NCBI GenBank assembly: GCA_951406725.2
Contig: OX597834.1
Location: 41,540,001-41,604,000 of the forward strand
Length of the DNA: 64,000 nucleotides
Source of the DNA: Octopus vulgaris
Taxonomy: Eukaryota
Direction: 5' to 3'
Part shown: positions 765 through 58,772 of the stretch, piece after piece
Layout of the letters: each line of letters begins with the position of its first letter
How positions within the stretch are numbered: position 1 is the stretch's first letter
Position numbers and translations under genes: made by a program
Notes under the pieces: model-generated
Seen by the model: only the letters and a program-made list of their open reading frames with translations
What the model was told of the DNA's origin: nothing
The model's database searches: none

Positions 765-765
<1 letters not shown>

Positions 766-3102: not shown

Positions 3103-3325
3103 AGCGTAGGAGTGGCTGTGTGGTAAGTAGCTTGCTTACCAACCACATGGTTCCAGGTTCAGTCCCACTGCGTGGAACCTTGGACAAGTGTCTTCTACTA
3201 TAGCCTCGGGCCGACCAAAGCCTTGTGAGTGGATTTGGTAGACGGAAACTGAAAGAAACCCGTCGTATATATGTATATATATATGTATATATATATGTAT
3301 ATATATATATATGTATATATATATG

Positions 3326-3390
<65 letters not shown>

Positions 3391-3620
3391 GTGTATATGT
3401 TTGTGTATCTGTGTTTGTCCCCCCAACATTGCTTGACAACCAATGCTGGTGTGTTTACGTCCTCGTAACCTAGCGGTTCGGCAATAAGAAACCGATAGAA
3501 TAAGTACTAGGCTTACAAAGAATAAGTCAAGGGGTTGATTTGATCGATTTAAAGGCGGTGCTCCAGCATGGCCACAGTCACATGACTGAAACAAGTAAAA
3601 GAATAAAGAATAAAAGAGAG
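3103..3620 (+). mobile_element. SINE family A (tRNA-like head, internal TA/TG microsatellite, (gagtaaaa)n tail)
   Basis: A-box-like GGAGTGGCTGTGTGG and B-box-like GGTTCAGTCCC; more than 10 related copies in this window. Confidence 0.9.
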
Positions 3621-3722
3621 TATGTATCTATATATATATGTATGTATGTGTGTATATATATATATATATATTTGTATGTGTAAATATTTATATATGGTAT
3701 ACCTCGACATTTTCTTTACCAG

Positions 3723-3826
3723 GCAGAATGACTATCAGCCGCTCTAAAAGTGGCTCCGTATCTATCCTTGAATTGGAATCCGAAGGTAGATATATTGAAC
3801 TTGAAGACAATCCTAAGTTTCCAAAG
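3723..3826 (+). CDS. IF-1 exon 8 (lamin tail domain start)
   Basis: tttctttaccag|GC...AAG|gtgagc; RMTISRSKSGSVSILELESEGRYIELEDNPKFPK. Confidence 0.92.
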
Positions 3827-4219
3827 GTGAGCGAACTGGCATCCTATATCATCCAATTGTCTCTTTTGATTTGCTGACATACATCATTCGAAAGCGGGTC
3901 CAATTCCGTATTAACAACGTTTCCACATGGATACATTAAGTCGACCAAACGTTAACATCCACTAGTATTTTTCTTTGCTTGATTACTATGCACATTTGTA
4001 GTAATTTGTGCTTCTGTAACTCTTCGGTAACGCTGCCTTATATAAACGGGAGGAAATCTTCATCCACACACCCTTCCAAACATACATATGAAAACGTGGA
4101 CATCTATTTTGCCTCTGTTAAATCCAGTGATATATTCAGTATTCATATAATTTGTTATGATTATAAAATCTTATTTTACCTATCGAATATTGCATATTCT
4201 ATTCTCTTTTTAATCGTAG

Positions 4220-4330
4220 GGATCAACAAACCTGAAAAACTGGACATTGATCCAATCTCAAGACAATGGCAAGACCTTCACCCATAAATTTACGGATGGT
4301 AACCTGTTTAGTTCTGGTAAAATGATCAAG
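4220..4330 (+). CDS. IF-1 exon 9 (lamin tail domain)
   Basis: cgtag|GGA...AAG|gtaagt; 111 nt; GSTNLKNWTLIQSQDNGKTFTHKFTDGNLFSSGKMIK. Confidence 0.92.
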
Positions 4331-5164
4331 GTAAGTTTGTATTTGTTCTAAAAGTCATTATTATTTTTATAATGTTTATTAACTAAATATTAGATATTAA
4401 AAGCACCAGTTTAAATCGAGAAAGGAGAACGCGACCGAGAAACGAGAATAGTCTCGTATCTATCGATTGCCAGGACTCGACATTCCCCATGACAATGTAA
4501 AGCAATATTAGTTATATTGTTCCTGTTATGTTAACTGTTATAATTTACTTCGATTGCATCTGACCAGGTAAGCATGGGAAAGTTGATGTTAAATTATTCC
4601 AAATGACGATGATTACGACGAAGATGATGATGAAGACGAGGAGGAGCGTGTCTTCAAATTATGCTTATATTAATTAAATAAAAAACTATTAGGAGTTAAT
4701 TCATAATGGATACCACACGGTAACTATGGTCAAAGAGCCTGTTGCTAATCATTCCGTGTATTGGCAAAATTGTTAGAGCAGCGGAAAAAAACACGTAGTG
4801 TTATTTATTCCATCCTTGTACTTACTTAGATCAAATCCCGCCGATAAATGAAATGAAGTTCTAATCAAGTAGTTAGATCGATAACATCGATAGACAACCT
4901 ACCTACTAATGCTTCAAATGTTTTGCCCAGGCAGAATCATTTGGGTATAAGAAAAATACCATTTGGTACTTGCTTTCCAGCTCTTTATTTTGTATCTTCA
5001 AATCCCGCTGCAATCAACTTTCCCGTCAACCACTTTGAGTTTATAAAATAAAGTACAAATGATGAACTCTTGTTCAAAGTTCTGACATTGTGTCTAAGTT
5101 ACAAGCAAATATTAGGTTTGTTGATGATGTTGCTACTGTACTTAATTCTTTTATCCATATCTAG

Positions 5165-5278
5165 GTTTGGGGATCAAGACACGGTGCTGGTCAAGGTGGC
5201 GTCACATCTTCCGATGTCACTGAATGGGGAACAATGGCCGTGCCATGCACAGTTACTTTGATAGACGACAAAGGCAAG
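5165..5278 (+). CDS. IF-1 exon 10 (lamin tail domain)
   Basis: atctag|GTT...AAG|gtaagg; 114 nt; VWGSRHGAGQGGVTSSDVTEWGTMAVPCTVTLIDDKGK. Confidence 0.92.
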
Positions 5279-33787: not shown

Positions 33788-33901
33788 ATTTGGGGACACA
33801 AACACGGTTCTGTAGAAAGTGGCATTGTGTCCTCCACAGTCTCGGAATGGTCTGCATTGAGTAATCCTTCGACAATTACTTTGAAAGACAACAATAATAA
33901 G
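33788..33901 (+). CDS. IF-2 exon 10
   Basis: tttctag|ATT...AAG|gtaaga; 114 nt; IWGHKHGSVESGIVSSTVSEWSALSNPSTITLKDNNNK. Confidence 0.92.
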
Positions 33902-34515
33902 GTAAGATTCCTTTATTCCGTGCTTTAGAATATCGCTCCCTCCTCATTTCATAAATATGTATTTCCCATATATATATATGTATGTATGCATGTACGCATA
34001 CATATACACGTACATACACTCACGCACACACATATACATATATGCAGTTTAACAAATGCGTGAGTTATACGTGAGCTACTTCGAGTTTCATGCTAAGATT
34101 GTGCTGTGATAAGATGGCAATCGTTCATGATCAAATAATATGGCGACTTTGCAAGTAAAATTCGAAAACAAGAAATTGTATGAGAAAATATTGGTGAAGA
34201 AAATTTCTGAAAGAAAGGGGGCATAATCCATATCTTTCAAGGTATATTATGTCTCTTTAAGCCGAAGGTGTTATCAGCTAAACAGGATATGCGTACTGGG
34301 ATGAAATGAATGGATCGTGCCTGGTTCTTTATGCAAGACTGTTTGATTACTGCACGACGAGAGCATGGAATCAGAAGTAGTTTATGAGCAGATATATACG
34401 GTGTTATATATCGGAGAAACAAAATGAACAAGCAAGGCTTTTCCGTGAATTTTTTTCCACTTTAATAATTAATTGCTTACAAATCATATCACCCACACAA
34501 ACACACACACACACG

Positions 34516-34592
<77 letters not shown>

Positions 34593-34605
34593 CTATGTGT
34601 ATGTA

Positions 34606-34689
<84 letters not shown>

Positions 34690-34751
34690 TGTGTGTATGT
34701 ATATTTGAAAGAACTTTTTCTTCATCCATTCCCTTCCGGTCATTCAAAATG

Positions 34752-34954
34752 TAACCGCGTATGTACTGTTGGCGATTTTTTCCGTCCGTCTTGCCTTCTT
34801 TGGATCTTTCCTTTTCCTATGTTTCTGACGAAGGGCTCCGCTCGAAACATTAAAGCCTCCTTCTTTCCTTTTTCCCTGAGCGTCCAATAACACTATACTT
34901 GTTCCACTTCCTCACGTTTTTGTGTTTTCTCTTTGTGTTTTCATGTTTGGATTA

Positions 34955-34958
<4 letters not shown>
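34752..34958 (+). mobile_element. Family P2 repeat with hammerhead-like motif at 34821-34855
   Basis: gttt-CTGACGA-a-GGGC tcc GCTC-GAAACATT-aaag. Confidence 0.72.
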
Positions 34959-35008
<50 letters not shown>

Positions 35009-35102
35009 TTAATCCAAACATGAAAACACAAAGAGAAAACACAACAACGCGAAAGTTCGCAAGCATGATGGGGGAGAATGTTAGTAGTTATTTAGCTGGT
35101 GG

Positions 35103-35163
35103 ACTTTGGCTGATGAGAAATCACGCGTCTAGGTGGCGCTAAATTTCGAAACCGGTACCGAGT
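35103..35163 (+). ncRNA. Minimal type I hammerhead ribozyme motif with intact core
   Basis: Stem I UUUGG/CCGAG; CUGAUGA 35110-35116; stem II GAAAU/AUUUC; GAAA 35148-35151; palindromic CCGG; UA cleavage site after 35157. Confidence 0.75.
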
Positions 35164-35432
35164 TGGCCAGAATTTACTTGTTCTGACTCATTTGAGGTAA
35201 GACATTATTATTATTGTTCACTGATATTTTTTCCTATCTTGTCTGTAATAGATTTGTGACTATTTGGTGGTACAGAAGTATTTTTTGACTTCTATAATTA
35301 GCGATATAGGTACTCATGTAGTACCCTTCTGTATATATGTACATATCTAATATTGTATGTATGTATTTTATTAATTTGCCTGTACGGCTAATAATTCGCT
35401 TACCACTTGTGATGGTAATTTAATAATACCAT

Positions 35433-35499
<67 letters not shown>

Positions 35500-35746
35500 A
35501 GTGTATATATTTGTGTGTTTGTGTGTGTGTATGTGTGTGTATGTAAATATATATATATATGTATGTATACGTTCGCGTGTTGTCACTCACACGTACAAGT
35601 ACGATAGTTCGCCCGTCATATTTATATCCTAGACACAGCACATAAAAGTGGACAGTCAAACGATTGATGCCCCCATCCATTTGACATTCCAAAAGGTCAT
35701 GTAACTTCCGATATTCATTGATTTGTTATCTGTTTTCAATTTTCAG

Positions 35747-35785
35747 ATATGTGCTGCCTTTGTATCAAAATTGGTATTTGACTGA
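35747..35785 (+). CDS. IF-2 exon 11 (preferred terminal coding exon)
   Basis: ttttcag|ATA; ICAAFVSKLVFD*, similar in length and character to IF-1 ESAKLVIKTNM*. A competing acceptor ends at 35979. Confidence 0.65.
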   Translation: MCAAFVSKLVFD

Positions 35786-36936
35786 ATGGAGTAATTCAAT
35801 ATAAGAAAGACAACTGCTGAGCGCCTGTGCCTTTTTCTTAGCTGAGAGGACAAAGTTTTTCGAACAGTTCGGCCGAGTTTCATAGTCCTATTGCCTTTCA
35901 TTATAGTTATACTTGCGTAAAATAACTCTACTGCTAACTTTAATTTTGCTGTTTGTGTCTTCCTTTTTTTTCTTTACAGGATTCTCTCCAAAGAGAGAAT
36001 GATAAATGAATGATAAAGCACAGCACTACTTTTAGTTTTCTTTACGTGATATCTCGTGACGATTAGGAAATATTAACCAACGTTATTTACCATTATATTT
36101 TCTGCGGTAGACTGATATTATCGCTCAGTTTAGTACCATCACCTGGTCTTTGGATGTTTTCAGAGAAGTCAAGTCCACTATTTTGTAAGCAAAAAAGCTA
36201 GGTTTTTTTCACCTAAGGATAATCTCTTTCCCCTCACGAACCTTGGAGGCTCTGGAAACAATGGTGGACGTTAGAAAATCTCCACCGATTAAAATATTTA
36301 AAATATTTCCTTCGCAGTGAATTTCAATAGCTTTTGTTTTATATTTGTGGCAGTAAAACATATGCATGCCACTTTGTATTATTACATACACAAATAAAAG
36401 GATTATAAGTGGCAGTATCGGAAAGAACGAATTAATTTTATTGGAATTAATGGTGAATGAATTTCTTTTAATATCTTGAAGGAGTATCACAAATTTTCTT
36501 TTGTAGGATTTTCTTTCCATAATTACAAACAATAAAAAGTTTTTTAAATAACTACTTTTTGTGTAATTTCTCAATTAAACCAGTCAACTAAACTCAAACA
36601 GGCAAATGGTCGAGTACATAACGCAACATGAATTTGTAGATTATGAATAAAATAGGGATTTTTCTTATAAGAAAAGATCTTATCGAAGACCTTATTATTT
36701 TCTCTATTTTCCTGTTGCTTACAGTAGCCAGTGTTACCTGGTTAGTATTAATTTTGATAACAGGTACGTATAGCGCGCCATTTGAGGTAATAGTATTGAA
36801 GTTGTGGATAAATTGGAAAATTTGAATTGGGATGCCCAACTGACCCTACTATGCTGTGTAGTTGACAAAATCAAAAACAAACAATGCGCATGCATGAAAT
36901 TAAAACCATAATAAATAAATATATATATATAACAGT

Positions 36937-36960
36937 TTTATTGCCATTTATATTTTTATT
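36937..36960 (-). terminator. Candidate polyadenylation signals of IF-3
   Basis: Minus-strand AATAAA at 36960-36955 and 36942-36937, followed by a GT/T-rich tract (tgtttgtttttgatttt). Confidence 0.5.
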
Positions 36961-37386
36961 CTTTACAATTCAACTCAAAGAGCTGATGTAAAATACAATA
37001 CTTCAAGTGTTCAGAATATTTAACATTGATGCAGCTTATGTGTAAAATATCCTGTGCGCTGAACATTGAACTGGCTATTGTTAGTTAAAAAAAACGCTTA
37101 AAAATGATATTAGAAGGAAGAAAAACGGAAGATTTAAAGAATTAGTGTAAAAATATAATCAAAGAAAAAGAAATTAAAAAAAAATGTTCGTGTAAAATTA
37201 CAATTAAAGAGAAAATGATGAAAGCAAATATTTAAAGAATGAGCATAAAATTATGATTAAAGAAAGAGAAAAATGAAAAAAAAAACAAGCAAAAGTTTAA
37301 GCAATGATTGTAAAATTATAATTAGAGAAGGAGAAATTATGAAACCTTACTTTTAAAGACTGTAAAATTATTATCAAAGAGAAATA

Positions 37387-38138
37387 TTTGGTTGTCCCAC
37401 GTGAGATGAACTCTTTCTAAAATTTGTTTTTGTGAGAGTGTATCTGATAAATTTTAAAGCATCAACTCTTTCTTTTAAATTTACCAGACATGTGCTGCAT
37501 TTTTCTACACAATTTGCTGACATCAGATCTAGAAAATTTTAACTGTATTGTGGACTATAAGACAAATTTAATGTTCTTAGCCTTTTTAGACGCTGTCCAG
37601 GAAAGAAGTCAGACTTTTACCGTTCTATGATTTTAGACTCGATGAAAATGTCTCTAAAGCGAACGAAACTGTCAATGTTCCATTTCGAATGGGAACTTGT
37701 ACAGCAGAACAGAAAGAATATGGTTCAATAAATTTCGATCTAGAAACTCCCTCCATGATTGGTCAATGAGGAAACATTGGAACATGGTGTTCGTGCACTT
37801 GGCAATAATTAGAACGATTTTATAGGACTTCATCTTGCAACGATCAGTAAGTTGAAAGAGCTGAACAAATTTATTCCACATGATTTAAATGCTGTAAAGA
37901 AGATGCTTTGTTTGGCGGTCTGTTCTTTTTTCTTCAACTTTTCATGAACACGAAAAAGTATGCAAGCAAAGTCAATCACAGCATTTGAGTAATTTATAGC
38001 TTCGAAAGACAATAATATTTTCCAAGGCAGTATATAGACTCTCAAGATGATGGAAAAAAAATTGTTGAAGGTTATTTTGATTAAGAAAAAAAAAATTTAT
38101 AACTTTTGCTTCTTCATTTCTCATGTAGGACAACCTAA
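37387..38138 (+). mobile_element. Internally deleted mariner relic
   Basis: Imperfect TIRs (TA|tttggttgtcccacgtgaga ... tctcatgtaggacaacctaa|TA); remnants KEVRLLPFYDFRL and RTERIWFNKFRSRNSLHD resemble the mariner N-terminal HTH region. Confidence 0.7.
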
Positions 38139-38322
38139 TATAAAAAGGATAAGTAAGAGTTTAGAGAAAAGAAATTAAAAATAACAAAAGTTGAGAGAAA
38201 ATAATTATCGCATCTCTCAACTGAAGATATTATATGGGAAACTCTTTACATAAAATAATAAATCTTCTGGAAGTTGAGACAGAGAAAACGGTCTTGATGG
38301 CCAGGATTGGAAACAATACTTT

Positions 38323-38353
38323 TTATGTGTTCGTCTTTGAGGAAGATTCCTTT
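38323..38353 (-). CDS. IF-3 candidate terminal exon start
   Basis: Very strong acceptor atttctttcatttttttttctttttcag|A. Gives KESSSKTNT* after the micro-exon, or an immediate TGA if joined directly to exon 6. Confidence 0.4.
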
Positions 38354-38419
38354 CTGAAAAAGAAAAAAAATGAAAGAAATATATTGATATTGATACATAA
38401 GTATCTATTATCATACACA

Positions 38420-39018
38420 TCGTTCCGGGTTCAGTCCCTCTGCGTAGCACCTTGGGCAAGCGTCTTCTACTATAGCCTCGAACCGACCAAAGCCTTGTGA
38501 GTGGATTTGGTAGACGGAAACTGAAAGAAGCCCGTCGTATATATGTATATGCATATATATGTGTGTGTTTGTGTATATGTATTTGTCCCCCCAACATCGC
38601 TTGACAACCGATGCTGGTGTGTTTACGTCCCCGTAACTTAGCAGTTCGGCAAAAGAGACCGATAGAATAAGTATTAGGCGGTGAGTTGGCAGAACCGTTA
38701 GTACTCCGGGCGAAATGCTTAGCGGTTTTTCGTCTGCTGATACGTTCTGAGTTCAAATTCCACCGAGGTCGACTTTGCCTCTCATCCTTTCGGGGTCGGT
38801 AAAATAAGTACCAGTTACGCAGTGGGGTCGATCTAATCGACTTAATCCCTTTGTTCTTGTTCGTCCCCTCTATGTTTAGCCCCTTATGGGAAATAAAGAA
38901 ATAAGAATAAGTACTAGGCTTACAAAGAATAAATCCTGGGGTCGATTTGCTCGACTAAGAGCAGTACTCCAGCATGGCCGCAGACGAACAACTGAAACAA
39001 ATAAAAGAGTAAAAGAGT
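38420..39018 (+). mobile_element. SINE A interrupted by SINE B (38676-38900)
   Basis: agaataagta(t/c)taggc duplicated around the insert. Confidence 0.85.
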
Positions 39019-39314
39019 ATTATTGTTATTATCAAGTTTTCAATAATTTCATGTCTCCAAGCCCACATTTGCAAGCATCGTTCGTTTTGTTTTATTATTT
39101 GTTCTGTTAAGTTTGTTGTGAAGAATATGGAAAACACGAGAAATGTGTTATTTTGCTGGTTGTTGATTGAGTATCGAACGTGGTGTGTGCCGGGTTATGA
39201 ATGTGTAGAGCCTGTTGTGATATAATTATGGATGGTAAGAAGGAAAGAGAGAGAGAGATCAAGAGACAGCGAGAGAAGTGAACCATGATATATTTTATGA
39301 TTAGGTATTTATAT

Positions 39315-39740
39315 ATATTTCTTTATTACACACCAGGGGGCTAAACATAGAGGGGACAAACAAGGACAGACAAAGGGATTAAATCGATTACATTGACCCC
39401 AGTGCGTAACTGGTACTTAATTTATCGACCCCGAAAGGATGAAAGGCAAAGTCGACCTCGGCGGAATTTGAACTCACAATAACATAACGGCAGACGAAAT
39501 ACCTATTTCTTTATTACCCACAAGGGGCTAAACACAGAGCGGACAAACAAGGACAGACATAGGTATTAAGTCGATTACATTGACCCCAGTTCGTAACTGG
39601 TACTTAATTTATCGACCCCGAAAGGATGAAAGGCAAAGTCGACCTCGGCGGAATTTGAACTTACAATAACATAACGGCAGACGAAATACCGTTAAGCATT
39701 TCGCCCGACGTGCTAACGTTTCTGCCAGCTCGCCGCCCTT
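39315..39740 (-). mobile_element. SINE family B tandem dimer
   Basis: Two head-to-tail ~185-bp units. Confidence 0.85.
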
Positions 39741-39794
39741 TAGGTATTTATATATTTAAATATTATTATAAATATCAAAACATTTTTATCTCAC

Positions 39795-39830
39795 TTGAAG
39801 TTAATAAGCACAGTCCGAACAATTGCAATG
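39795..39830 (-). CDS. IF-3 candidate 36-nt exon 7
   Basis: ttattag|C...AA|gtgaga, phase 2-2; (C)IAIVRTVLINF(K). Weak pyrimidine tract; speculative. Confidence 0.3.
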
Positions 39831-40071
39831 CTAATAACATCACTACGAACTCAGATGATTGAAAGATCTGTCCAAGTAGTTGTTCGATATAACACCACGG
39901 GTCAGCAATTGAACGAGTGCGAGCAAATCAGTTTTGTCTCTCTACGCCCATCTCGGACAAACCTATCTACCAGCGCATAAGTGCCTATATATTGCATCTC
40001 CAACCGGTTGCGCCCCTTGGTAGCATTGTCACGCCAAAGAAAGTGTGTTTTTTTTTTATATATATGTGGGG

Positions 40072-40095
40072 TTAGGGTTAGGGTTAGGGTTAGGG
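40072..40095 (+). repeat. (TTAGGG)4 interstitial telomere-like repeat
   Basis: Directly visible. Confidence 0.85.
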
Positions 40096-41059
40096 GTGGG
40101 AGAAAAGGGTTTCTGTTATCTTCAGAAATGCAAACAAAGCCACTTCCGGTACTTACGGTACGTATACCGAAGGATCGCCCTATTAAAGCTCAATACCTGA
40201 ATGTAACAACACATGCCCAGCTAGAAAAACTCCTGAAAGTTATGTGGATAGATATAGATTATGCAACCAGGCCAAGGCAGTTCCGGAACATGGAAATCCA
40301 TGTCAAGAACGACGCCCCCCCCCGCCTCGCTGAAACACTCCACTCTTGCTACACGCCAGATGAAACTCCCAATGGCTGTTGTCTAGTGCTGCATTGGAGA
40401 GCAGTAACACCATTCTCAACGTCAAACGAACAGAGAGGGTGTTTTGGTTTATGATTACATCGTAGTTCAAATCCTGCCGAGATAAACATTAATTTTCATG
40501 TCTTCTTGGAACAGTAAAGTAACTACCAGCCCAAGAATTTAGAGAGGAGGAGGTCGTTACATCAGAATGTCTCGGCCTTTTGTAGCGCCGTCAATAATCA
40601 ATGTCCCGTATTCAAATACCGTTGTATTTGCCTTTGATTCTCATAACTTCCTGAGTCTACAAAATATGTACTGTTCAAGGAGTTAGGTAGGAGGGGGCAA
40701 TTTATAATTGTTGAAGACATGTTTGTCCCCTCTATGTTTAGCCCCTTGTGGGTAATAAAGAAATAGGCATTTCGTCTGCCGTTATTTTATTGTGAGTTCA
40801 AATTCCGCCGAGGTCGACTTTGCCTTTCATCCTTTCGGGGTCGATAAATAAAGTACCATTATTTTGATTAAGAAAAAACAAATTTCTAATTGCTTTTGCT
40901 TATTCATTTCTCAGCGGCCAATTCGTTTAGGACCACCTAATATAAAAAGACAACGGTTTAGTGTAAAGAATAAGTAAGAGTTTAGAGAAAGAAATTTTTA
41001 AAAATGATTAATTAAAGATAAGTTTTATAACTTGCAGATAAGTTAAAACCAGTATTTAC

Positions 41060-41280
41060 CAGTTTTCAGCCCGATCCAGGATGCTACGATAACGATCAAT
41101 TTCGTCTTCGATCCTCCGATTCGCGTCCAACAGATCTTGGTTTTCCTTTTGCAATATTTCAATATCGCCTCTGAGACGGGCATCATCGGCTCTATGTTCG
41201 GCTGTCTCACGTACCAGCTCCGAAGAAACAGATAAATATTTAGCGTTTGCTTCATCCAATTTCGATTTTAAATCGTTGAT
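41060..41280 (-). CDS. IF-3 exon 6 (coil 2B end)
   Basis: ttatag|ATC...TG|gtaaat; 221 nt; ...QDLLDANRRIEDEIDRYRSILDRAEN. Read-through gives W* (TAA at 41058-41056). Confidence 0.92.
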
Positions 41281-41356
41281 CTATAAGCAAATGAATTAAA
41301 GAAACAAAATCTATATTTATATTTACACACACATATTCGCAAACACACACAAACGC

Positions 41357-41430
<74 letters not shown>

Positions 41431-41433
41431 TAC

Positions 41434-41550
41434 CTGAGTCTGGCATTTCAAAACGTTTCTTTCAAACTCATCTCTCTCTTCACGAATTTCTTTGTTCTTT
41501 CTTTCCATTTGTCTCACTTTAAACTCTTCTTCCGAACGTATTCTTCGAAT
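41434..41550 (-). CDS. IF-3 exon 5
   Basis: atttcag|ATT...CAG|gtaata; 117 nt; IRRIRSEEEFKVRQMERKNKEIREERDEFERNVLKCQTQ. Confidence 0.9.
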
Positions 41551-43112
41551 CTGAAATAATATACAAACAATTCATAATATTTTAAACAATATATCAACAT
41601 CTTTCTTCTCTCTTTGACCAAAAACGTTTTGCTGAAATTGTTTGTATTTGCGTTTCACTTCGGCCTGAATTCGCGAAATTTACACAATTATTTTTGCCAA
41701 TAAACACCACTTCAACATCTTAAGGTCACCTCTAGTGTATTTCAATGAAAACCATTGCCAGATTTTGTCAACGAAAGCTCTGTTCCATTTTGCAAATGAA
41801 CACGAATGTTAAATTTTGTCAATGAATAACAACTTTTGGTTGGACACTGTCACGTCTTTTATTATGAAACAATGTTTAACAACGAAATTGGAATTGACTG
41901 TGGTTCAGCTGAAACAATTCTGGTTGCTTTTATCATTGCATAGCTCTCAGACGATTCCCCATTTAAAGCGGTAGAGTACAATTTCTATCATATAATCTGT
42001 TTCTGTGGTCTACAACCTATTGAAACAATGATTGTGTGTCTGTGTGTGTGTGTGTTTGTAAGTATCCATCTGTCTCTCGCACATTCTTACTGGCTTACAT
42101 CCAAACGGCGATTGACTTACTGAAACATGGAAACCATAAATTACCTCCTTCGACATCAGTGACATTTGAACTCAGAACATAAAGACGGACGAAATGCCGC
42201 TAAGCATTTTACTCGGCGTGCTAACAATTCTGCCTGCTTATCGCCCTACAACTAGGCTTAACCGTGGAGAAACAGAAGCAAGAGAAAATCTAAGCCTAAT
42301 TTCGATCTAGAAAATAGTAAACTCATCGGGATTTATTTTCAGCGAGATTTCTCTCACACACAGAAATGATTCTACATCGTCCCTCAGTTTCCTAATAAAT
42401 AGTCTTCACAGAACCTGACTCTACAGAGTTCCTCGGCTTCTTAATAATAGCAACCAAATATCCCTTAAATCCCAGTCGTCTCTCTTAAAAAGAGGGACAC
42501 GATGTACAACATAATTCTAAAGGCACAACAAAAAGAATGGTTTGCTCTTAAATGGGACACCTTTGATCGTATCGCTGCTCGAAATGGGGCTATACAACAG
42601 CAATGAAAAACAACAGCGACAACATGAACTGCAATGTTTCTAAAACAGTGGTTAGTGAAATGAACACCAGGTGGCTTTGCAACTGTTTGATTCTATGTTA
42701 CGAATGAAAAAAATATTCTTACGGGCATTGCCGTTGTATTTTGGACTTCTTTAGCGTTTCCTGAATTATTAATCATCTGTTGGTTGAATGAAATGGTTGA
42801 AACCTTACACAAGGATTTCTTAATACTCTAGATCCTCCATCCTCACCTTCTCTCGAAAATCAGAGCATTCTTCCCCTAACTCACCGATCTCAAGAAACGG
42901 TGAATGAAGTTAAAAGAAATCTACTGCAAAATATCTATTTCAAAAATCAGAATTTAAGTGTTCTTTTCAATAAGGTACATTTGTAGAATGGAGAAAGGCT
43001 GAGTGAGAAGCAATCAACCCTTTCTTGTAAAAAACATAATGGAAATTTTTAAGGAGCACTCATTGAGTAGCAGAGAACGAAACGGAAATGTAAAGATGTA
43101 AAGGGGACTCAC

Positions 43113-43277
43113 CTTGGATTCGAACTCAGTCTTTATGATAGAACATTCTGTTTCTAATTTATGTTCATATTCTCGGCGAATTTCATTCTTGGATTTGTTG
43201 AGTTCTGATTCCCAATATTTCTTAATTTCAGCATCGGGATTTTGTTTGGCCAAAAGTTCCTGATACTCTTTGCTTTT
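43113..43277 (-). CDS. IF-3 exon 4
   Basis: gtgtag|AAA...AAG|gtgagt; 165 nt; KSKEYQELLA...YWESELNKSKNEIRREYEHKLE...FESK. Confidence 0.92.
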
Positions 43278-43826
43278 CTACACAGAAACATAGAGAAGGC
43301 AAGATGATGACATAATGATGGTAAGTCCACAAAACACAACAGCAACGAAAATTACACTAGCAACAACAACAACAACATCAATATCAACCAAAAGAATAAC
43401 AAGAACACCAAAAGCAACAAGAGAATATGCAACGTCAACAACTTGGTAATGCTTCAGACCAGCCTAGAACACCAAAACAAATATACCCAGAGGAAAAAAA
43501 GCAGGGCATTGATCAGAAAAGCATGGGAGCTATCCCGGGCCTAATCAATCTATCAAACAGTACAAAAGTCTACGTGGTGAGTCAGAGCAGGAGACCGAGT
43601 CGTCACTTGTGCAGTGACTCACACCACCATAGTGTTTTCTGTCTACAGCAAATGAAAGAAGAAAGACCACAACTTCTTCAAGTACTGTAACCATAGCAAC
43701 ATCAGCAGCAGCAGTAGTAGTCGATGCAGGCTGCCACGATGGCATAAATAGCAAGAAGAGTAAAACTAGCAGTAGCAGCATAACTGGTAAGAGCATCTGC
43801 ATCAACAACTGCAACAACAACAGTAG

Positions 43827-44020
43827 TGGAGGGGCAATGGCCCAGTGGTTAGGACAGCGGACTCGCGTTCTTACGACCGCGGTTTCGATTCCCAGGCCGG
43901 GCATTGTGAGTGTTTATTGAGCAAAAGCACCTAAGCTCCGCGAGGCTCCGGCGGGGTAGGAGTGGTGAACCCCGCTGTACTCTTTCACTACAACTTTCTC
44001 TCACTCTTTCTTCTTACTTC
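43827..44020 (+). mobile_element. SINE family C, head and body (truncated)
   Basis: Sequence match to family C. Confidence 0.8.
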
Positions 44021-44029
44021 TGCCACAAA

Positions 44030-44400
44030 GCAGAGGAACCATGGTTTAAGCCACTATGGTGTGGTAAACTTTCAGACCCTAGTCTAGATTGCGAATCCTC
44101 TGTACCCCAGGATGGTTCAGCTCTCCACCCGTTAAAGGCCACCATGTAATTCCATACGGAGTTGGCTGTTCTTGTTTGGAATTCATGAGCATTCTCAAGT
44201 TCATTTTTGGTCACTCCTTCTGCACAAGCAGCATACTGTTTCAGATCTCCTTTGCTTTTTAGCTAATATTCTGCCTTGCTTCTTTTTTCACTGTTGATGC
44301 ACTTCTGTTCGCTAATCAGCCCACGTCCACCCTTACCTCTTTCAATGTAGAGCCTGTGTACATTTGCCTTAGGGCGGAGGGCACCATACATTGTCATTGT
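44030..44400 (-). mobile_element. Non-LTR retrotransposon fragment
   Basis: MYGALRPKANVHRLYIERGKGGRGLIS, homologous to MHHPKSDIEGLYIQRIEGGRGLI at 60023-60355. Confidence 0.75.
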
Positions 44401-44489
44401 CTTCGTATTTCTCACTTCAAGCCACAGTTGTTTATTTTTTTCCAGTTATAATCAGTTATAAGAGTAAAAGAAGGAGAAAATTTACTTAC

Positions 44490-44585
44490 GATTTCATAGT
44501 CATGTTTGAGGGTGACCAGTTCAGCTTGTATTGTATTTGCTCGTTGGGCCTCAGCTCCGCGATTGGAAATTTCCCTTTCCAAACA
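44490..44585 (-). CDS. IF-3 exon 3
   Basis: taacag|TGT...ATC|gtaagt; 96 nt; CLEREISNRGAEAQRANTIQAELVTLKHDYEI. Confidence 0.9.
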
Positions 44586-44689
44586 CTGTTAATAGAAATG
44601 AAGTTTTCGGTTTATATGTATATGTATATGTGTATATACATACACATACATACATGTGTGTGTGTGTGCGTGCATGTTTGTGTATATAT

Positions 44690-44920
44690 ATTTCTTTACT
44701 ACCCACAAGGGGCTAAACACAGAGGGGACAAACAAGGACAGACAAAGGGATTAAGTCGATTACATCGACCCCAGTGCGTAACTGGTACTTGATTAATCGA
44801 CCCCGAAAGGATGAAAGGCAAAGTCGACCTCGACGGAATTTGAACTCAGAACGTAACGGCAGACGAAATACGGCTACGCATTTCGCCCGGCGTGCTAACG
44901 TTTCTGCCAGCTCGCCGCCT
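44690..44920 (-). mobile_element. SINE family B, full length
   Basis: Sequence match to family B. Confidence 0.88.
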
Positions 44921-44943
44921 TGTGTGTGTATATATATATACAT

Positions 44944-44979
<36 letters not shown>

Positions 44980-45109
44980 TCACTGCGTTTATTTCAATTT
45001 CCGCCTACTAAATCCGCACACGAAGCTTTGGTCACTATAATATGAAGCGCCACATACAGATATTAAAATTAGATACAAATCTACAATATGTTTGTTAAAG
45101 AACAATGTA

Positions 45110-45432
45110 TGGAGCACTCCGTCGGTTACGATGACGAGGGTCCCAGCTGATACGATCAGCAGAACAGCCTGCTCGTGAAATTAACGTGCAAGTGGCTGAG
45201 CACTCCACAGACACGTCTACCCTTAACGTAGTTCTCAGGGAGATTCAGCGTAACACACAGTGTGACAAGGCCGGCCCTTTGAAATACAGGTACAACTCAT
45301 TTTTGCCAGCTGAGTGGACTGGAGCAACGTGAAATAAAGTGTCTTGCTCAAGTACACAACGCGTCGCTTGGAATCGAACTCACGACCTTACAATCGTGAG
45401 CCGAATGCCCTAACCACTAAGCCACGCACCTT
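45110..45432 (-). mobile_element. Chimeric SINE (family D head, family C tail)
   Basis: TSD AAAGAACAATGTAT. Confidence 0.85.
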
Positions 45433-45667
45433 CACAAAGAACAATGTATATATATCTCCTGATACCTGTTGCATGAACTTCACAAGAAACGAACGAAAGC
45501 AAGCGTTATGATGTGCACTTTTGTTCCTCGTAACAATTATGCCATCCGAAATCGATTGATCGCACATCCAAGGGGCTCCCGCAAACGCCCATCCACTAAA
45601 TTTCATTCCAAACGCGTTTTTGTAAAGCAGAAGCTGAGATAAAAGAAAATAACAAACTTCCTAGTGA

Positions 45668-46095
45668 TAGGCGCAGGAGTGGCTGTGTGGTAAGTAGCTT
45701 GCTAACCAACCACATGGTTCCGGGTTCAGTCCCACTGCGTGGCATGTTGGGCAAGTGTCTTCTGCTATAGCCTCGGGCCGACCAATGCCTTGTGAGTGGA
45801 TTTGGTAGACGGAAACTGAAAGAAGCCCGTCGTATATATGTATGTACATATATATATATGTGTGTGTGTATGTTTGTGTGTCTGTGTTTGTCCCTCTAGC
45901 ATTGCTTGACAACCGATGCTGGTGTGTTTACGTCCCCGTCATCTAGCGGTTCGGCAAAAAGAGACCGATAGAATAAGTACTGGGCTTACAAAAAGAATAA
46001 GTCCCGGGGTCGATTTGCTCGACTAAAGGCGGTGCCCCAGCATGGCCGCAGTCAAATGACTGAAACAAGTAAAAGAGTAAAAAGAGAAAAGAGTA
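45668..46095 (+). mobile_element. SINE family A, full length
   Basis: Sequence match to family A. Confidence 0.9.
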
Positions 46096-46123
46096 TACCA
46101 AGAGGAAATCACGTGGTTGTATA

Positions 46124-46357
46124 TATTTCTTTACTACCCACAAGGGGCTAAACACAGAGGGGACAAACAAGGACAGACATTGGTATTAAGTCGATTACAT
46201 CGACCCCAGTGCGTAACCGGTACTTAATTTATCGACTCCGAAAGGATGAAAGGCAAAGTCGACCCCGGCGGAATTTGAACTCAGAACGTAAAGGCGGACG
46301 AAAAACCGCTAAGCATTTGGCCCGGCGTGTTAACGTTTCTGCCAGCTCGCCGCCTTA
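46124..46357 (-). mobile_element. SINE family B, full length
   Basis: Sequence match; atca(c/t)gtggttgtata flanks both sides. Confidence 0.88.
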
Positions 46358-46613
46358 TCATGTGGTTGTATAGCGAACTTTTTAACCACTCGCTCAAGAT
46401 ATTATTAATTAGCATATTATATCAAAAACTTCATGTCAATTTTAATAAAACTTAAATATTTTATAAACATAGAAAACTGATTTTGTGGTAGGAGACACTT
46501 TCTCCAAATCCGGGGTCTCGTGGTTACTAAGAGAAACGCTTAGGTACTCGGCAATGCTTGCCAAATTACAAGTTCCCAAAACAGAGCAATAATCATGTTT
46601 AAGTTTTGCTTAC

Positions 46614-46800
46614 CAATTTAACTTGCTGTAGTTGGTCTTCCCGACAGCGAATGTTATTTTTCGAGTCGTCGAGTTCTTTCTCCAGAGTTTGAACCTGCCT
46701 TCTCATAATTTCGCTGTCAGTAACACGCCGAGAGAAGTCATCATTAAGAGTCGCAATAGTGTTTTGCTTTTGGCCGCACATATCAGTGAGTTCACGTACT
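46614..46800 (-). CDS. IF-3 exon 2
   Basis: ttacag|A...TTG|gtaagc; 187 nt; VRELTDMCGQKQNTIATLNDDFSRRVTDSE... aligns with IF-2 LYDDISRQISDSE. Confidence 0.92.
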
Positions 46801-46986
46801 CTGTAATATAAGAGTCGAAGTGTATTTGTTTGGGCCAGTGGAAAAAATTATATATATCGTTTGTAAAAAACATAAATCCGAAAGAAAACCACACTCTAAG
46901 ATGTAGAGCAGTATATATTATAAGGTATATATATAAAGTATATATTATAAAGTATATATATAAAGTATATATTATAAAGTATATAT

Positions 46987-47063
46987 AGGCGCAGGAGTGG
47001 CTGTGTGGTAAGTAGCTTGCCTACCAACCACATGGTTCCGGAAACTGAAAGAAGCCTGTCGTA

Positions 47064-47112
<49 letters not shown>

Positions 47113-47326
47113 ATATGTATATGTATGTGTGTGTGTGTGTTTGTGTGTCTGTGTTTGTCCCCCTAGCATTGCTTGACAACCGATGCTGGTGTGTTTACGT
47201 CCCCGTCACCTAGCGGTTCGGCAAAAGAGACCGATAGAATAAGTACTGGGGTCGATTTGCTCGACTAAAGGCGGTGCTCCAGCATGGCCGCAGTCAAATG
47301 ACTGAAACAAGTAAAAGAGTAAAAAT
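46987..47326 (+). mobile_element. SINE family A with internal deletions
   Basis: Sequence match to family A. Confidence 0.85.
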
Positions 47327-49759
47327 ATACATATATACATATAAAAAAATATATATATACATATTTAGAGACATTTGTTGGATGACCGTTGACTGTCCAG
47401 GATTTCATGAAGCGCTTGACAAGTCCTAATTTTCATCCTGCAGGGTGTCCAACACCGTCCTCCTCAACATGCAAGCTTGGTGGGGTTGCCAGTTTAGTTG
47501 CTGACAACCCGACTACGCGATATGTTGTACTGGATTACATGTTACCAGCAGCACTCAAGAGCGACCTGACATATATATTTACGTATAAGAGGTAATTTTA
47601 CCACTATGTGGAAACCTTTATGCTAGAAGAAGATCCGCTATGGTCTTAACCACTAAGAATTGTTCTCTAGAAAATTTAGCAAACACCAGAAACGTAAGCG
47701 AGCAAGACAAATGAAAAGTAACAAAAATATAGATTAATGATAAACAAATGTTTCACTATCAACAAATTACGATTTATTGATGTAATGTTGTGTATTACGA
47801 AAGCGAATGTACATACTGATCCAATACTAAACATCAAACAATTTGAAATTTTATAAATGCATAAACACAACACTTTAATATGTTCCAGCAGGAAGCGTTG
47901 AAAACGCAAAGTTTGAGTGAGCAAATGCAAAATTTGTAGAGAGAACTGGTTGGCATTGAATCGCACAGAAATATCAATAAGAGACGGCAGAGCGGAGCAG
48001 TAATGGTAAGGTAGAAAGAGCGAAACGAAGAAATGTTGTGAGAACGAGGATGAAAATATACAAGTTAAGTGATGAGATTTGCTTAGAGATGAGTATAAAA
48101 AAAAGAAAGAAAGAAGAAAAGTAGGGATAGACGGAAGGGTTAAAAAGTCGTTGAGGACCAGACAAATCAACGCAAATCATAAATCTAAGTTTGAAGAAAA
48201 TAGATTTGAGAAGGGAGGTCAAAGAGAATTATATAAAAGAAAGAAAACTAGGAAACACAGCTAGACCACCCTATTTTTACGTGTAGCAGAAAAATCTTTT
48301 CGTGATCTGAGTACAGTATAAGCATTCTATAAAGTAGCGAAAAATAAAGGTAAATTAGAAAATGTGAGGAATGCTTGCGAAAACGGTTATTATATAACTA
48401 TAAATTGAATTTTAAACACTTTAGGGCATTATACAAAATAAAGGAATGTCATAATTTTAAGTAGGTCTAATTAATATATGTAAATAGATGAAGAAGGATA
48501 TGAGAGCTAGGACAAAGATGACGGTCGATATACAATTTCATAGTTATCTCAGACGACTAGAACATTTTGATCTATGGTAAAAAGTAGAGGTTTTAGAAAT
48601 TAATGTCTTCTGAATATAGCTGCGTCAAGTTGTTAATACAAAGCAGAGAGTCAGGAAGACTTCGGAAGGTGAACATGTAGTATTTTATACGTAGTTAGCT
48701 ACACCCCAAGATAAGGAAGAAATAAAACCCAAGTAATGATGAGACAATTTGGTAAGTAGGTCGATAGTGTCACAGCTAAATATTTAAGAATTGCTTAAAG
48801 AGATGGGCAGGTAGTCTTTGACACCTATCTCTCAAATGGCTGCATGATTTGTGCAAACCTCTGCATATTGTCTATGTGGAAGGCTTGGAAATCTATGAGT
48901 ATGCTGTCAGTGCATTACATCGACCCCAAGGTTTGACTGGTACTTATTTTATCGACCCCGAGAAGATGAAAGGCAAAGTAACTGCGACTGAATTTGGTGT
49001 GTGTGTGTGGGGGGGTATGTATGTATGTATATATAATAATATAAATAATATATAAATATATGCATATATACATACATATATGTACATGCCTACATATATA
49101 TGTATATATATATACATGCATATATGGGTACTGGACATCAACGTTGAACACAATGAGAAACGAAAATAAAAACAAAAACATAGAAACGAACTTATTTTCG
49201 AACAACGAAAAAACAAACAGAAAAACGAGACATACAATATAAAGAATATTCTCCTTCTTCAGTTGTCCCTGTTTCATCTACTCCGCTTTTCGAAGGTAAG
49301 GACAAGACGCTACTTCGTTGAAACAGTCCTTCCCGCAAAGCAAATTAAATAACATTTGGGATTTTTTGCGGAGGATGGAAGTGGTAACAAGAACAGGACA
49401 GTGAAAACAAAACAGTAAAAACAAACGGTGAGGGTTGTTAAGTCAAGACGATAGAAAGATTATTAGGAACGCTAGGAAGACGAGCTTATGGAGGAGACAG
49501 TATGTGCACGTTGTTGTCTTTATCAAGGTAGTAGTCAGAAAGATAGATTCTCTTTCGTCACGTGTCAGCGACGAGAGAGTCGAGGAGGAGGAGTGAGAGA
49601 GAGGGAACGGTGAAGAGTAGAGGAGAAGAAAAGGGAAGGGTGGTAGAGAAAACCAGAAAGGATGGAGAACAAGAGAGGGAAGAGATAGACAGAGAAGAGA
49701 TCGTAAAGATAGAAGAGTGCGCATATATATATATATATATATATATATTTCGTACTTAC

Positions 49760-50022
49760 TTGGCACATGAGCCCTGCAGTTCTTGTTCCAAGGTGTTGAT
49801 ACGGTCGTTTTTCTGATCATTTGTCTTACCATGTATTTCTTTTATCGTTTGAATCTCTACTCGCGACGCCTCTTTAATGGACTTGACGTCAGCATCTCGC
49901 TTTTTCAAATCGTCTTTCAGGGAATTGAGCTCACACTGAAGGAAACTGTTCCTTTCCGTGAATTTTGAAAACCTTGAGTTCAAATTTCCCAACTCTTTCA
50001 CATCCTGCTGTTTGTGTCCCAT
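49760..50022 (-). CDS. IF-3 exon 1 (very short head plus coil 1A/1B)
   Basis: AAGATGG start context; in-frame stop upstream at 50092-50094; DVKELGNLNSRFSKFTERNSFLQCE; AA|gtaagt donor, phase 2. Confidence 0.88.
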
Positions 50023-50125
50023 CTTGTTGTTGTTATTCGAAAAAAAAACTGTTTTACAGTTTTGAGGAAAAAATCCTGTGCAGGTACAAGGCTAAAGCAC
50101 TGGTGACCACTTCGACGTATCTGCC

Positions 50126-50163
50126 AACTGTGGAAGATTACGAGATCCTAAGCATTTTATATA
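50126..50163 (-). promoter_or_regulatory. Candidate TATA box plus initiator of IF-3
   Basis: Minus-strand TATATAAAA (50163-50155) lies ~32 nt upstream of an Inr-like CAGTT (A at 50129), which is ~107 nt before the ATG. Confidence 0.6.
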
Positions 50164-53627: not shown

Positions 53628-54779
53628 AAACCGTTCCCATCCCTAAATGAGACAAATAACCAAGAAATCAAACAACTTTTTCGCATTTCAGCTTTATAGA
53701 TATTGATTAGAACAGCGGTCATTAATTAACATCATGAAATTAAAAGACACGTAATTGGGTGGCGGTTAATTTAGAGCAGTTTCCACCATAATATATTTAT
53801 TTCTTTATAGCTTTCACAGGTACAGCCAAATTTTGAAATTCTCAAGAATGAGATGAAGTTTCAAGAGACAAAACGTACATATTCTTGAGCGGTGGATCCA
53901 ATTTGCGGCCTAGTTTAACGCCATCGTTTAGTCTCTTGGGGGTCCCAAGTAGAGTACACAGTGTTGCAATCATTCAGACGAAGCTTCCCCCCTGTAGCTT
54001 TTTTTGAGCTACCCTTAAAATAAAAACAAGAACCGTCATAGGATAGATGTAAAATTAACAGCGGACCTTGAAGCAATCCAGAGAAGATTCACAAAGAAGA
54101 TCGTCTCTTTGCAACAGCTCAGCTACTGGGAAAGGTTGAAACAGCTAAGACTCTACTCCCTGGAGAGAAGACGGGAGAGGTATGCAGTAATATGTGTCTG
54201 GAAGATCCTGGAAGGAATTGTGCCAAGTTTTGGCATTGTAAGCTACACTATATTGCAATCATTCAGACGAAGCTTCTCCCTGTAGCTTTTTTTGAGCTAC
54301 CCTTAAAATAGAAACAAGAACCGTCATAGGGTAGATGTAAAATTAACAGCGGACTTTGAAGCAATCCAGAGAAGATTCACAAAGAAGATCGTCTCTTTGC
54401 AACAGCTCAGCTACTGGGAAAGGTTGAAACAGCTAAGACTCTACTCCCTGGAGAGAAGACGGGAGAGGTATGCAGTAATATGTGTCTGGAAGATCCTGGA
54501 AGGAATTGTGCCAAATTTTGGCATTGTAAGCTACACTATATTCCAATCATTCAGACGAAGCTTCCCCCCTGTAGCTTTTTTGAGCTACCCTTAAAATAAA
54601 AACAAGAACCGTCATAGGGTAGATGAACTCGTGTCAGCCAACCGCCACCCAATTACGTGTCTTTTAATTTCATGAGGTTAATTAGTGACCGCTGTTCTAA
54701 TCAATATCTATAAAGCTGAAATGCGAAAAAGTTATTTGATTTCTTGGTTATTTGTCTCATTTGGGGATGGGAACGGTTT
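53628..54779. mobile_element. Foldback-like element: 140-bp inverted repeats enclosing a tandemly duplicated LINE fragment
   Basis: 53628-53767 is the near reverse complement of 54640-54779; ~288-bp direct units at 53965/54254/54542 encode LEAIQRRFTKKI..LSYWERLKQLRLYSLERRRER (CR1/L2-type RT C-terminus). Confidence 0.8.
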
Positions 54780-57782: not shown

Positions 57783-57835
57783 GCACACACACACACACAC
57801 ACACACACTGGGATTCGAACTCACAACCTCACGAT

Positions 57836-58255
57836 CGTGACCTCGGCATAGCTGGAAAACTTGGAGTGTGGTTGCATGACTTCCTGAAAGATAGTAGTCA
57901 GACAGTAGTGGTTAATGGAGCCACCTCTATGAACACACAAATAGTGAGCGGTGTTCCACAGGGCACTGTCTTGGGACCATTGCTTTTTATAGTGGCCCTC
58001 TTAGATATGCCCTCAAATGCCCGGATAGCCACTCTGGCCAGCTATGCAGACGATACGAAAGTCTCGCAGAAAATACAGAACCCCAGCGATGTTGCACACC
58101 TGAAGCAGGAGTTGGACTCAATCTACAGATGGGCTGAAGATAATAATATGCAGTTTAATGCTGAAAACTTCGAGGCCCTACACTACCAGCATCCAAAACT
58201 GAATATTAAACTCACAGGATACACCGGTCCACGGGATTTCAATCCCAGAACCAGA
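57836..58255 (+). mobile_element. CR1/L2-type LINE reverse transcriptase fragment
   Basis: SGVPQGTVLGPLLF...SYADDTKV...LDSIYRWAEDNNMQFN. Confidence 0.88.
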
Positions 58256-58772
58256 ATGTTCGAATCCTTCATTCTTCTTATTCAACTGAAAACTTTCAAT
58301 GCGGTGCACCAGCATGGCACATGATTGAAACAAGTAAAAGATAAAAGATAGCAGGAAGAAAAAATATTTAACTGATCAAGGAAGTACGATTGTCACCATG
58401 AGGTAGCTTACCGTCACCCTCTAGTGGATACATTAAACAACGAATTCATTCTGAAAGAAATATCTTTTGCGTCGTAAAAAAACATGACATAAAGTTTTAA
58501 AATTCAGAATGAGTAAAAAAGCGAATGAAAATATTTAATCTAGAAGAACTCGGAAGGTTAGGTCTCCAACTTTTTAATCACATGAAGAAAGCGCGTTTTT
58601 CATGGTGCAATCCAACGATTGATCAATAGAAAATGTTCATATAAGTGAGTATATATATATATAATTATAACAAGGGCTTGGCTTGTTGTAATTACGAGGT
58701 TTTATTTCTGAGCTGACACTTGGTAAAAATCATTTATGATTTTACCCTTTATCATTATCTTAATCATCATCA

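Follow-up and report, generated by a model that had tools for sequence, protein, structure and literature searches.

Intermediate filament (IF) chains that lack the head domain do not assemble alone and need an intact partner to be incorporated; assembly is also impaired by changes at the rod ends or in the knob of the rod. Nestin plays a role in vimentin disassembly, and phakinin/BFSP2, which keeps its head, combines diverged rod motifs with obligate co-assembly. Human phakinin/BFSP2 is tailless according to the title of a reference in PMC13643694. Synemin, whose head counts 10 amino acids, forms no homopolymers and becomes part of type III filaments (PMC7090255). Vimentin without its head needs the wild type for assembly, and Caenorhabditis elegans IFA-2 lacking one end domain still localizes to filaments (both as given in PMC4351089). 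The lamin-tail domain is part of the conserved architecture of protostome cytoplasmic IFs (PMC4448529). Short-headed and tailless IF chains are already known, separately; the control of IF assembly is poorly understood, and rod-only chains have usually been engineered fragments. The subject of this study is IF-3, a gene on the minus strand of a 64,000-nucleotide stretch of Octopus vulgaris DNA (assembly GCA_951406725.2, contig OX597834.1, positions 41,540,001 to 41,604,000; hereafter the window, in whose numbering positions are given unless stated otherwise). It comprises six exons encoding a 349-residue IF rod and, at the level of sequence, was confirmed as a real, intact gene that is nearly headless and tailless and lies beside the gene from which it was copied, IF-4. 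Our reading, to which we assign a probability of about 45%, is that the IF-3 rod probably cannot polymerize alone and would limit the growth or packing of IF-4-type filaments as a minor subunit.

IF-3 shares with the protostome cytoplasmic IFs the Pfam Filament rod of ~350 residues, the long (lamin-type) coil 1B, the heptad periodicity, the break at linker L12, the descent, and the intron pattern. Unlike them, it has neither a non-helical basic head nor a lamin-tail (immunoglobulin, Ig) domain. Its likeness to IF-4 extends to a rod of 39–40% identity, the same intron positions and phases, a homologous promoter, and the long coil 1B, whereas only IF-4 has an acidic rod with intact end motifs, flanked by a lamin-tail domain and by a head of 60 residues that is basic and rich in Ser and Thr. 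The nuclear localization signal, Ig domain, and CaaX end of nuclear lamins were absent from IF-3. The very short head is reminiscent of synemin and nestin, but the tail of synemin is very long and IF-3 has no long tail; moreover, IF-3 is independent in origin, coming from a protostome long-coil-1B gene. By analogy, it likely works like synemin or nestin without being one. It is tailless like phakinin/BFSP2 and not an orthologue of it. The engineered IFA-2 chains were artificial and their rod was intact, whereas IF-3 is natural, lost both ends, and has eroded rod surfaces. In the open-access literature, searched by accession and by topic, no paper on IF-3 was found, nor any natural IF chain without both ends and with eroded assembly surfaces beside an unchanged parent.

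A preliminary description of this DNA, made from the letters alone, had reported six GT-AG exons with the phases of IF-2, an IF gene of the same window, and no stop or frameshift. The exon coordinates were confirmed (Table 1), the 349 codons were free of stops and frameshifts, all ten internal splice sites were GT-AG, and the phases were 2,0,0,0,0, as in IF-2. Its account of the 5' end held as well: the start codon, placed about six codons before coil 1A as compared to about 56 in IF-2, leaves a head of 6 residues versus 56, the in-frame stop upstream of the ATG was located 24 codons away, and the TATA box and initiator (Inr) stand at the proposed spacing. No ATG occurs between the Inr-like site and the start codon. 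For comparison, rods were built for five plus-strand paralogues (IF-0, IF-2, IF-4, IF-5, and IF-6); the genes at 41.409 and 41.459 Mb of the same cluster were left out of this set and of the trees. The IF-3 head carries a net charge of +1 and no Ser or Thr. The heads of the four paralogues other than IF-2 measure 60–65 residues. The exon sizes 187/96/165/221, given in the preliminary description as those of IF-2, did match; being common to all six paralogues built, they therefore provide no link of IF-3 to IF-2.

The tailless state was upheld in one respect, as database models add only 0–12 residues after the rod, and needed correction in another: the stop on which it had been based sits inside the GT donor of exon 6 and is therefore intronic if this intron is spliced. 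The donor scores like those of the paralogues. The modelled tails comprise 0 (P0002), 3 (P0001, acceptor 40936), or 12 (P0003, acceptor 38991) extra residues and no CaaX end. The acceptor at 40936 is weak (3.3 vs. a training minimum of 7.3), and the SINE-like (short interspersed element) repeat that forms the 12-residue exon has unmutated copies near 47291, 23065, and 10597. Among 41 pyrimidine-rich downstream acceptors examined, the sole long open frame (244 codons, 38949) falls in repeat sequence. The intron-6 acceptor and the terminal-exon region recur at 38220-38100, ~2.8 kb downstream; use of the acceptor of this second copy, at 38134, would yield a tail of 54 residues.

The same start Met is used in three database models, namely P0001 of O. 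vulgaris (CAI9738638.1) and the RefSeq models P0002 and P0003 of O. sinensis; the accessions of IF-3 are XP_029649123.1 and CAI9738638.1. Exon 1 of P0001 is 100% identical to that of IF-3. The same model contains a 36-residue hydrophobic exon inserted from intron 3 and a truncated exon 5, which looks like a modelling error. The two O. sinensis isoforms presumably rest on transcripts. The Pfam Filament model matched P0002 with 44.8 bits (cut-off 40) and the mis-modelled P0001 with 25.7 bits. No kinase family was among the Pfam hits at E 0.1, and no lamin-tail match was obtained. In RefSeq, the O. sinensis models are called rho-associated protein kinase 1-like, a misnomer in view of the Filament match and the missing kinase domain. 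A search of sequencing runs with exon 1 and its 5' flank returned no RNA run among those listed.

Matches to the IF exon 6 numbered 11 genome-wide, nine of which form a cluster of ~350 kb on the contig of the window (C21, 41.378–41.731 Mb); the other two are at C10:82.507 Mb and C23:19.657 Mb. IF-3 is the only inverted copy among the cluster matches. IF-4 adjoins it head-to-head beyond the window, ~19.5 kb off, and starts at 41609531 of the contig on the plus strand. Amino acid identity of IF-3 was highest to IF-4 (39–40%), followed by IF-5 and IF-6 (36–37%) and IF-2 (23%), and residues 106–140, encoded in exon 2 and belonging to coil 1B, were 57% identical. At four-fold sites, IF-3 differed from IF-4 by 0.26 compared to 0.64–0.80 for the other four paralogues. 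In the codon model, the topology joining IF-3 and IF-4 was better by 40 log-likelihood units than either alternative. The same grouping received bootstrap values of 93 (third positions) and 99 (all positions) in DNA trees, and support of 85/86 in the protein tree, in which the IF-3 branch is very long. The promoter and 5' untranslated region (UTR) of IF-4 were the only other copy of the IF-3 promoter region found in the genome. Furthermore, the two genes are collinear except for eight residues missing from IF-3, which correspond to in-frame deletions of 2, 3, and 3 codons that the preliminary description did not contain. As judged from these alignments and trees, IF-3 is an inverted duplicate of its neighbor IF-4, copied together with the promoter. 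IF-2 as the parent was ruled out by the four-fold sites, the codon model, and the protein and DNA trees; accordingly, where the preliminary description saw a partner or modulator of IF-1 and IF-2, the parent and likelier partner is IF-4.

Homologue searches retrieved IF-3 records solely from O. vulgaris and O. sinensis (2 of 37 candidates, 2 of 2009, and 0 of 171 shorter proteins). Among 33 representatives, there was no relative of IF-3 closer than IF-4. For O. bimaculoides, these searches found no IF-3 record, which is only weak evidence of absence. The O. bimaculoides counterpart of IF-4 (CAI9738639.1) is XP_014776803.1, named '60/70 kDa neurofilament-like', with 93–95% identity.

In IF-4, exon 1 consists of the homologous UTR, ~140 further untranslated bases, and a 60-codon head. 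In IF-3, ~30 nt lie between the end of the homology to this UTR and the ATG; coil 1A begins six codons after the ATG. Since IF-3 passes from homologous UTR to coil 1A within exon 1, its head was evidently deleted inside this exon. No head relic was detected between IF-3 and IF-4 (tblastn, best E 0.61). Similarly, four paralogue tails found no relic between IF-3 and IF-2 (33901–41060; tblastn, best E 0.54), in agreement with the earlier statement that no lamin-tail exons lie between exon 6 and the IF-2 3' end; by this evidence, IF-3 carries none. The suggestion that a weak AG at 50077-50076 could splice in an upstream head exon was ruled out. This AG is present also in the IF-4 UTR and is ancestral 5' UTR sequence, giving no pointer to a hidden head.

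The structure model of IF-3 showed two long helices with a break at residues 194–198, corresponding to linker L12 (predicted local distance difference test score, pLDDT, 90; predicted template-modelling score, pTM, 0.28). The 3.5-residue periodicity was kept in both coils (0 of 300 shuffles), and the ESM Atlas returned IF rod clusters for IF-3 at 0.92. A sequence search of the PDB gave one irrelevant match (E 0.055). Both hallmark rod-end motifs have drifted, as described previously for this DNA; most of their buried positions were kept and the exposed ones lost. Of 99 columns invariant in six reference rows, 53 were kept in IF-3, 59 in IF-2, and 68 in IF-0. Conserved hydrophobic residues were retained in IF-3 at 42 of 50 a/d sites and at 8 of 16 exposed sites (Fisher p 0.015, post hoc), whereas IF-2 kept 41 and 11, and IF-0 42 and 13, of the same sites. 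In this alignment, most of the a/d core is kept and conserved exposed hydrophobics were preferentially lost. Such exposed losses are, for example, I22T (coil 1A), L331R and L335D (both at the rod end), F175T, and V179D. The latter two positions, at which IF-4 residues were lost, align with vimentin F233 and L237, which we take to be the vimentin knob. For the A11 tetramer, keratins and vimentin require a knob formed by two residues where coil 1B ends, F314/L318 in keratin 1 (PMC8466517; PMC7555247). The exchanges F175T and V179D probably remove the tetramer knob of IF-3, and M52A and Y53S lie at the site of the would-be receiving pocket. In keratins, rod-end changes are the most disruptive ones (PMC2289357).

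Rates of change were explored with our own implementation of a codon model on four O. vulgaris genes (347 codons). The ratio of non-synonymous to synonymous rates (dN/dS) was 1.36 on the IF-3 branch and 0.12 elsewhere (likelihood-ratio test statistic, LRT, 87; profile interval about 0.8–2.4). Free-ratio fits gave a dN/dS of 1.12–1.19 for IF-3, and the age of the duplication is uncertain because dS amounted to 0.40–0.50 on IF-3 but 0.13–0.18 on IF-4. A branch-site test was significant (LRT 6.6, p 0.01), with ~75% of the sites at a dN/dS of about 2 and around a quarter unshifted; being our own implementation, run on four sequences with near-saturated background branches, it is fragile.

The frame of IF-3 is intact despite about 60% amino-acid change. 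In neutral simulations, stop-free frames were obtained in 0 of 3000 runs at the estimated distance of 0.38, in 1 of 3000 at 0.2, and in 44 of 3000 at 0.1, and all three indels relative to IF-4 are in frame. Neutral-drift runs matched to the identity of IF-3 to IF-4 yielded 25–31 Pro and Gly residues, compared to 7 in IF-3 (in both settings used, none of 1000 runs gave so low a count), and 45–51 non-core hydrophobics, compared to 20 (0 of 1000 runs). Neutral decay of IF-3 is unlikely, and these counts support selection to remain a helical coiled coil. The net charge fell from −26 in the IF-4 rod to −6 in IF-3, which is within drift (117 and 201 of 1000 runs as low); a loss of negative charge that compensates for the head loss was not supported, as the fall is within neutral expectation.

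Between O. vulgaris and O. sinensis, 24 of 349 residues differed in IF-3, 2 of 392 in IF-4, and 5 of 591 in IF-6 (Fisher p 2e-9). IF-3 changes ~10 times faster than the two paralogues in these sister species (24/349 vs. 7/983 pooled). Double changes affected 7 of the 24 changed codons, with 1.3 expected (P 1e-4); multi-nucleotide mutations could give both these double hits and the branch-site signal. Nine of the 24 changes fell in residues 281–315 of coil 2, encoded by exon 6 (P 0.009), while the last 34 residues were identical and the frame was open in both species. The species split ~2.5 million years ago and their mitogenomes differ by 3.21% (both from 10.1101/2023.05.16.540928). The 24 changes exceed the expectation at 1.5% neutral divergence (P 0.003) and do not at 3% (P 0.6). 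The comparison, made with protein sequences only for O. sinensis, cannot separate positive selection from near-neutrality.

In the mechanism that we favor, the starting point is the duplication of IF-4 with its promoter, after which the copy kept its rod but not the head, the tail domain, or a number of exposed hydrophobics. The protein would be made and dimerize as a coiled coil, and since its promoter is a copy of that of IF-4, the two genes would be co-expressed. It could then enter IF-4 filaments via the rod. Without head, knob, and end patches, it would offer no site to the next subunit and so act as a cap or a diluent. A stronger version, in which IF-3 is a dedicated anti-assembly subunit and positive selection adapts it to capping or softening the lens- or skin-type filaments of its parent, is tentative and, in our estimate, doubtful. 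If true, octopus would have built, from the rod alone, an invertebrate counterpart of nestin, synemin, and the beaded-filament chains.

Evidence for IF-4 as a partner was sought by complex prediction. The IF-4 rod and O. sinensis IF-3 reached a score of 0.43, as compared to 0.01 for the best of three controls, with at least 83% contact agreement between runs and a partner pLDDT of at least 75. In the calibration, 51 of 78 solved complexes attained the mark applied, as did 2 of 108 mismatched pairs; for eukaryotes, the counts were 39 of 65 (solved) and 2 of 126 (unrelated). Scores of 0.60 or under, however, comprised only 5 of the 78 solved complexes yet all four passing mismatches of 180. As the calibration covers solved, mismatched, and unrelated pairs, not close relatives, the pass may reflect likeness to solved IF dimers only. 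The prediction thus lends weak support to a pairing of IF-3 with IF-4. Omega-crystallin AAA16613.1 is presumably the cephalopod lens IF of Tomarev 1993. IF-4 peptides are listed in the supplement of an O. vulgaris skin-mucus proteome under transcripts labelled with this name and accession (PMC10138644), and an IF protein is named among cephalopod lens proteins in PMC3594755.

Several observations speak against IF-3 as a minor subunit of IF-4 filaments. The 3,654 listed rows of the skin-mucus proteome that contains IF-4 peptides held none of the four IF-3 peptides (PMC10138644). The division into a/d and exposed sites was chosen after the overall null had been seen, the registers were assigned by us from paralogues, and 21 of 87 conserved hydrophobic columns lie outside the four segments and were not counted. 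Over all conserved hydrophobic columns, IF-3 kept 64, compared to 59–61 by drift (317 and 127 of 1000 runs as high). The geometry of knob and pocket comes from keratins and vimentin and was not shown for long-coil-1B protostome IFs. Furthermore, relative to IF-4, three residues are missing early in coil 1B, and in coil 1A the buried Asn is displaced by one heptad (V25N and N32L, both a-positions); therefore, a self-dimer fits better than an in-register dimer with IF-4. The g-e' charge pairs did not discriminate between homo- and heterodimer (18 attractive and 4 repulsive vs. 20 and 3). The dN/dS of the IF-3 branch was not different from 1 (p 0.23; free-ratio p 0.46–0.67), and rapid change of IF-3 beside a near-invariant IF-4 (24/349 vs. 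2/392) is odd for an IF-4 binder.

Part of this evidence suits a protein that has left the filament system altogether. It would be a coiled-coil homodimer, soluble and bound to a new partner, with a surface under diversifying selection, for instance in reproduction, skin, or defense. The branch-site result, the double-change codons, and the clustering of nine changes in 35 residues of coil 2 would all be explained by such a surface; the coil 1B deletion and the shifted Asn favor self-pairing, and head, tail, knob, and end patches have all been lost. However, the promoter is still 77% like that of IF-4, the full rod length was kept, the branch-site test is fragile, and multi-nucleotide mutations are an alternative source of its signals. 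We consider this explanation unlikely, although it survives better than those that follow.

The preliminary description proposed a two-component filament system. Its underlying idea of a hetero-polymer is sustained by headless chains that co-polymerize elsewhere (synemin, IFA-2), but an obligate, load-bearing partnership, with IF-4 supplying head, tail, and knob, is improbable. It is in line with the assembly of type I keratins without knob and pocket residues with type II (PMC7555247), with the full rescue of C. elegans by headless IFA-2 (PMC4351089), and with the weak IF-4/IF-3 complex prediction (0.43 vs. 0.01 for the control). On the other hand, tailless IFA-2 fails to rescue (PMC4351089), the two coils 1B do not match in length, and IF-3 evolves fast. 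IF-4 keeps every self-assembly feature and is 93–95% identical in O. bimaculoides, a species for which the searches gave no IF-3 record; on these grounds, nothing suggests that IF-4 depends on IF-3. Both a minor modulator and a freed coiled coil are more likely than an obligate two-component system.

Equally improbable is a duplicate under relaxed selection that is drifting to loss, its frame reflecting past function. A branch dN/dS of 1.1–1.4 that does not differ from 1 would fit, as would the proportion of non-synonymous differences between the species (pN 0.029–0.037) if neutral divergence is ~3%, the inconsistent tails, one of which is derived from a repeat, and the eroded end motif of another cluster member near 41.495 Mb. 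Frame survival and helix constraint are nevertheless far from neutral; 3 of 3 indels are in frame and 10 of 10 splice sites canonical, and the frame is open in both species with identical last 34 residues. Finally, an ordinary IF gene with missed head or tail exons, for which the good donor of exon 6 and the weak nearby acceptor could be cited, is very improbable, as the parent head is encoded in exon 1, promoter and UTR homology runs to ~30 nt before the IF-3 ATG, no relic of a head up to IF-4 or of a tail down to IF-2 was found, and three models from two species share the Met and end at most 12 residues past the rod.

If IF-3 is a decaying duplicate, it is an ordinary case. IF-3 and IF-4 form a matched natural pair for asking which rod surfaces drive tetramer formation and end-to-end assembly in long-coil-1B filaments, and the pair bears on whether a chain without head and tail caps, dilutes, or ignores a filament. 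IF-3 is also an unusually fast-evolving cytoskeletal gene that is filed in databases under a kinase label. The features of the locus are collected in Table 1.

Table 1. Features of the IF-3 locus in window numbering
Feature	Position	Strand	Remarks
Core promoter and 5' UTR, copied from IF-4	50253-50054	-	76.8% identity over 203 nt, E 1e-32, TATA included
TATA box	50163-50155	-	conserved in IF-4
Inr-like site	near 50129	-	~32 nt downstream of TATA box; transcription start predicted from sequence
Exon 1, coding part	50022-49760 (263 nt)	-	6-residue head, coil 1A, linker L1, coil 1B start
Exon 1, deletions relative to IF-4		-	L1 minus 2 residues; coil 1B start minus 3
Exon 2, coil 1B	46800-46614 (187 nt)	-	best-conserved part; 79% nt identity to IF-4 exon 2
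Exon 3, coil 1B end	44585-44490 (96 nt)	-	F175T and V179D at the probable knob
Exon 4, linker L12 and coil 2 start	43277-43113 (165 nt)	-	
Exon 5, coil 2	41550-41434 (117 nt)	-	3 residues shorter than IF-4
Exon 6, coil 2 end	41280-41060 (221 nt)	-	eroded end motif; phase-2 GT donor at its end
Candidate terminal exon	40936-40927	-	3-residue end (WWS), used by O. vulgaris model P0001
AATAAA	40791		
Alternative terminal exon	38991-38955	-	12 residues, SINE-like repeat, matches O. sinensis X1 tail

Other members of the cluster were also inspected. The IF-1 of the preliminary description turned out to be no more than a 3' half, duplicated from a gene that lies upstream of the window. The regions concerned are window 272-5278 and C21:41528000-41536227. 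IF-1 has only exon 6 and tail exons, and it follows the first copy of exon 6 and tail of the gene starting at 41510789, with no exons 1–5 found between them. It is either a duplicated 3' half that offers alternative tails or a partial duplicate. The cluster member at C21:41491272-41502295 has a strongly eroded rod-end motif and kept its tail exons; because its end motif is eroded as well, degenerate copies arose in the cluster more than once. IF-2 (window 12726-33901) is divergent, with a branch of 1.15 in the protein tree. The best exon-5 candidates of IF-0 and IF-2 score low (31 and 33) and are uncertain; they barely resemble those of the other paralogues and look non-helical. Fragments resembling the reverse transcriptase of long interspersed elements (LINEs) were recognized by eye from translations at 59000-61700 (minus strand), 54000-54600 (plus strand), and 57800-58320 (plus strand). 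The segments 54019-54282 and 54307-54591 form a tandem pair of such LINE-like fragments.

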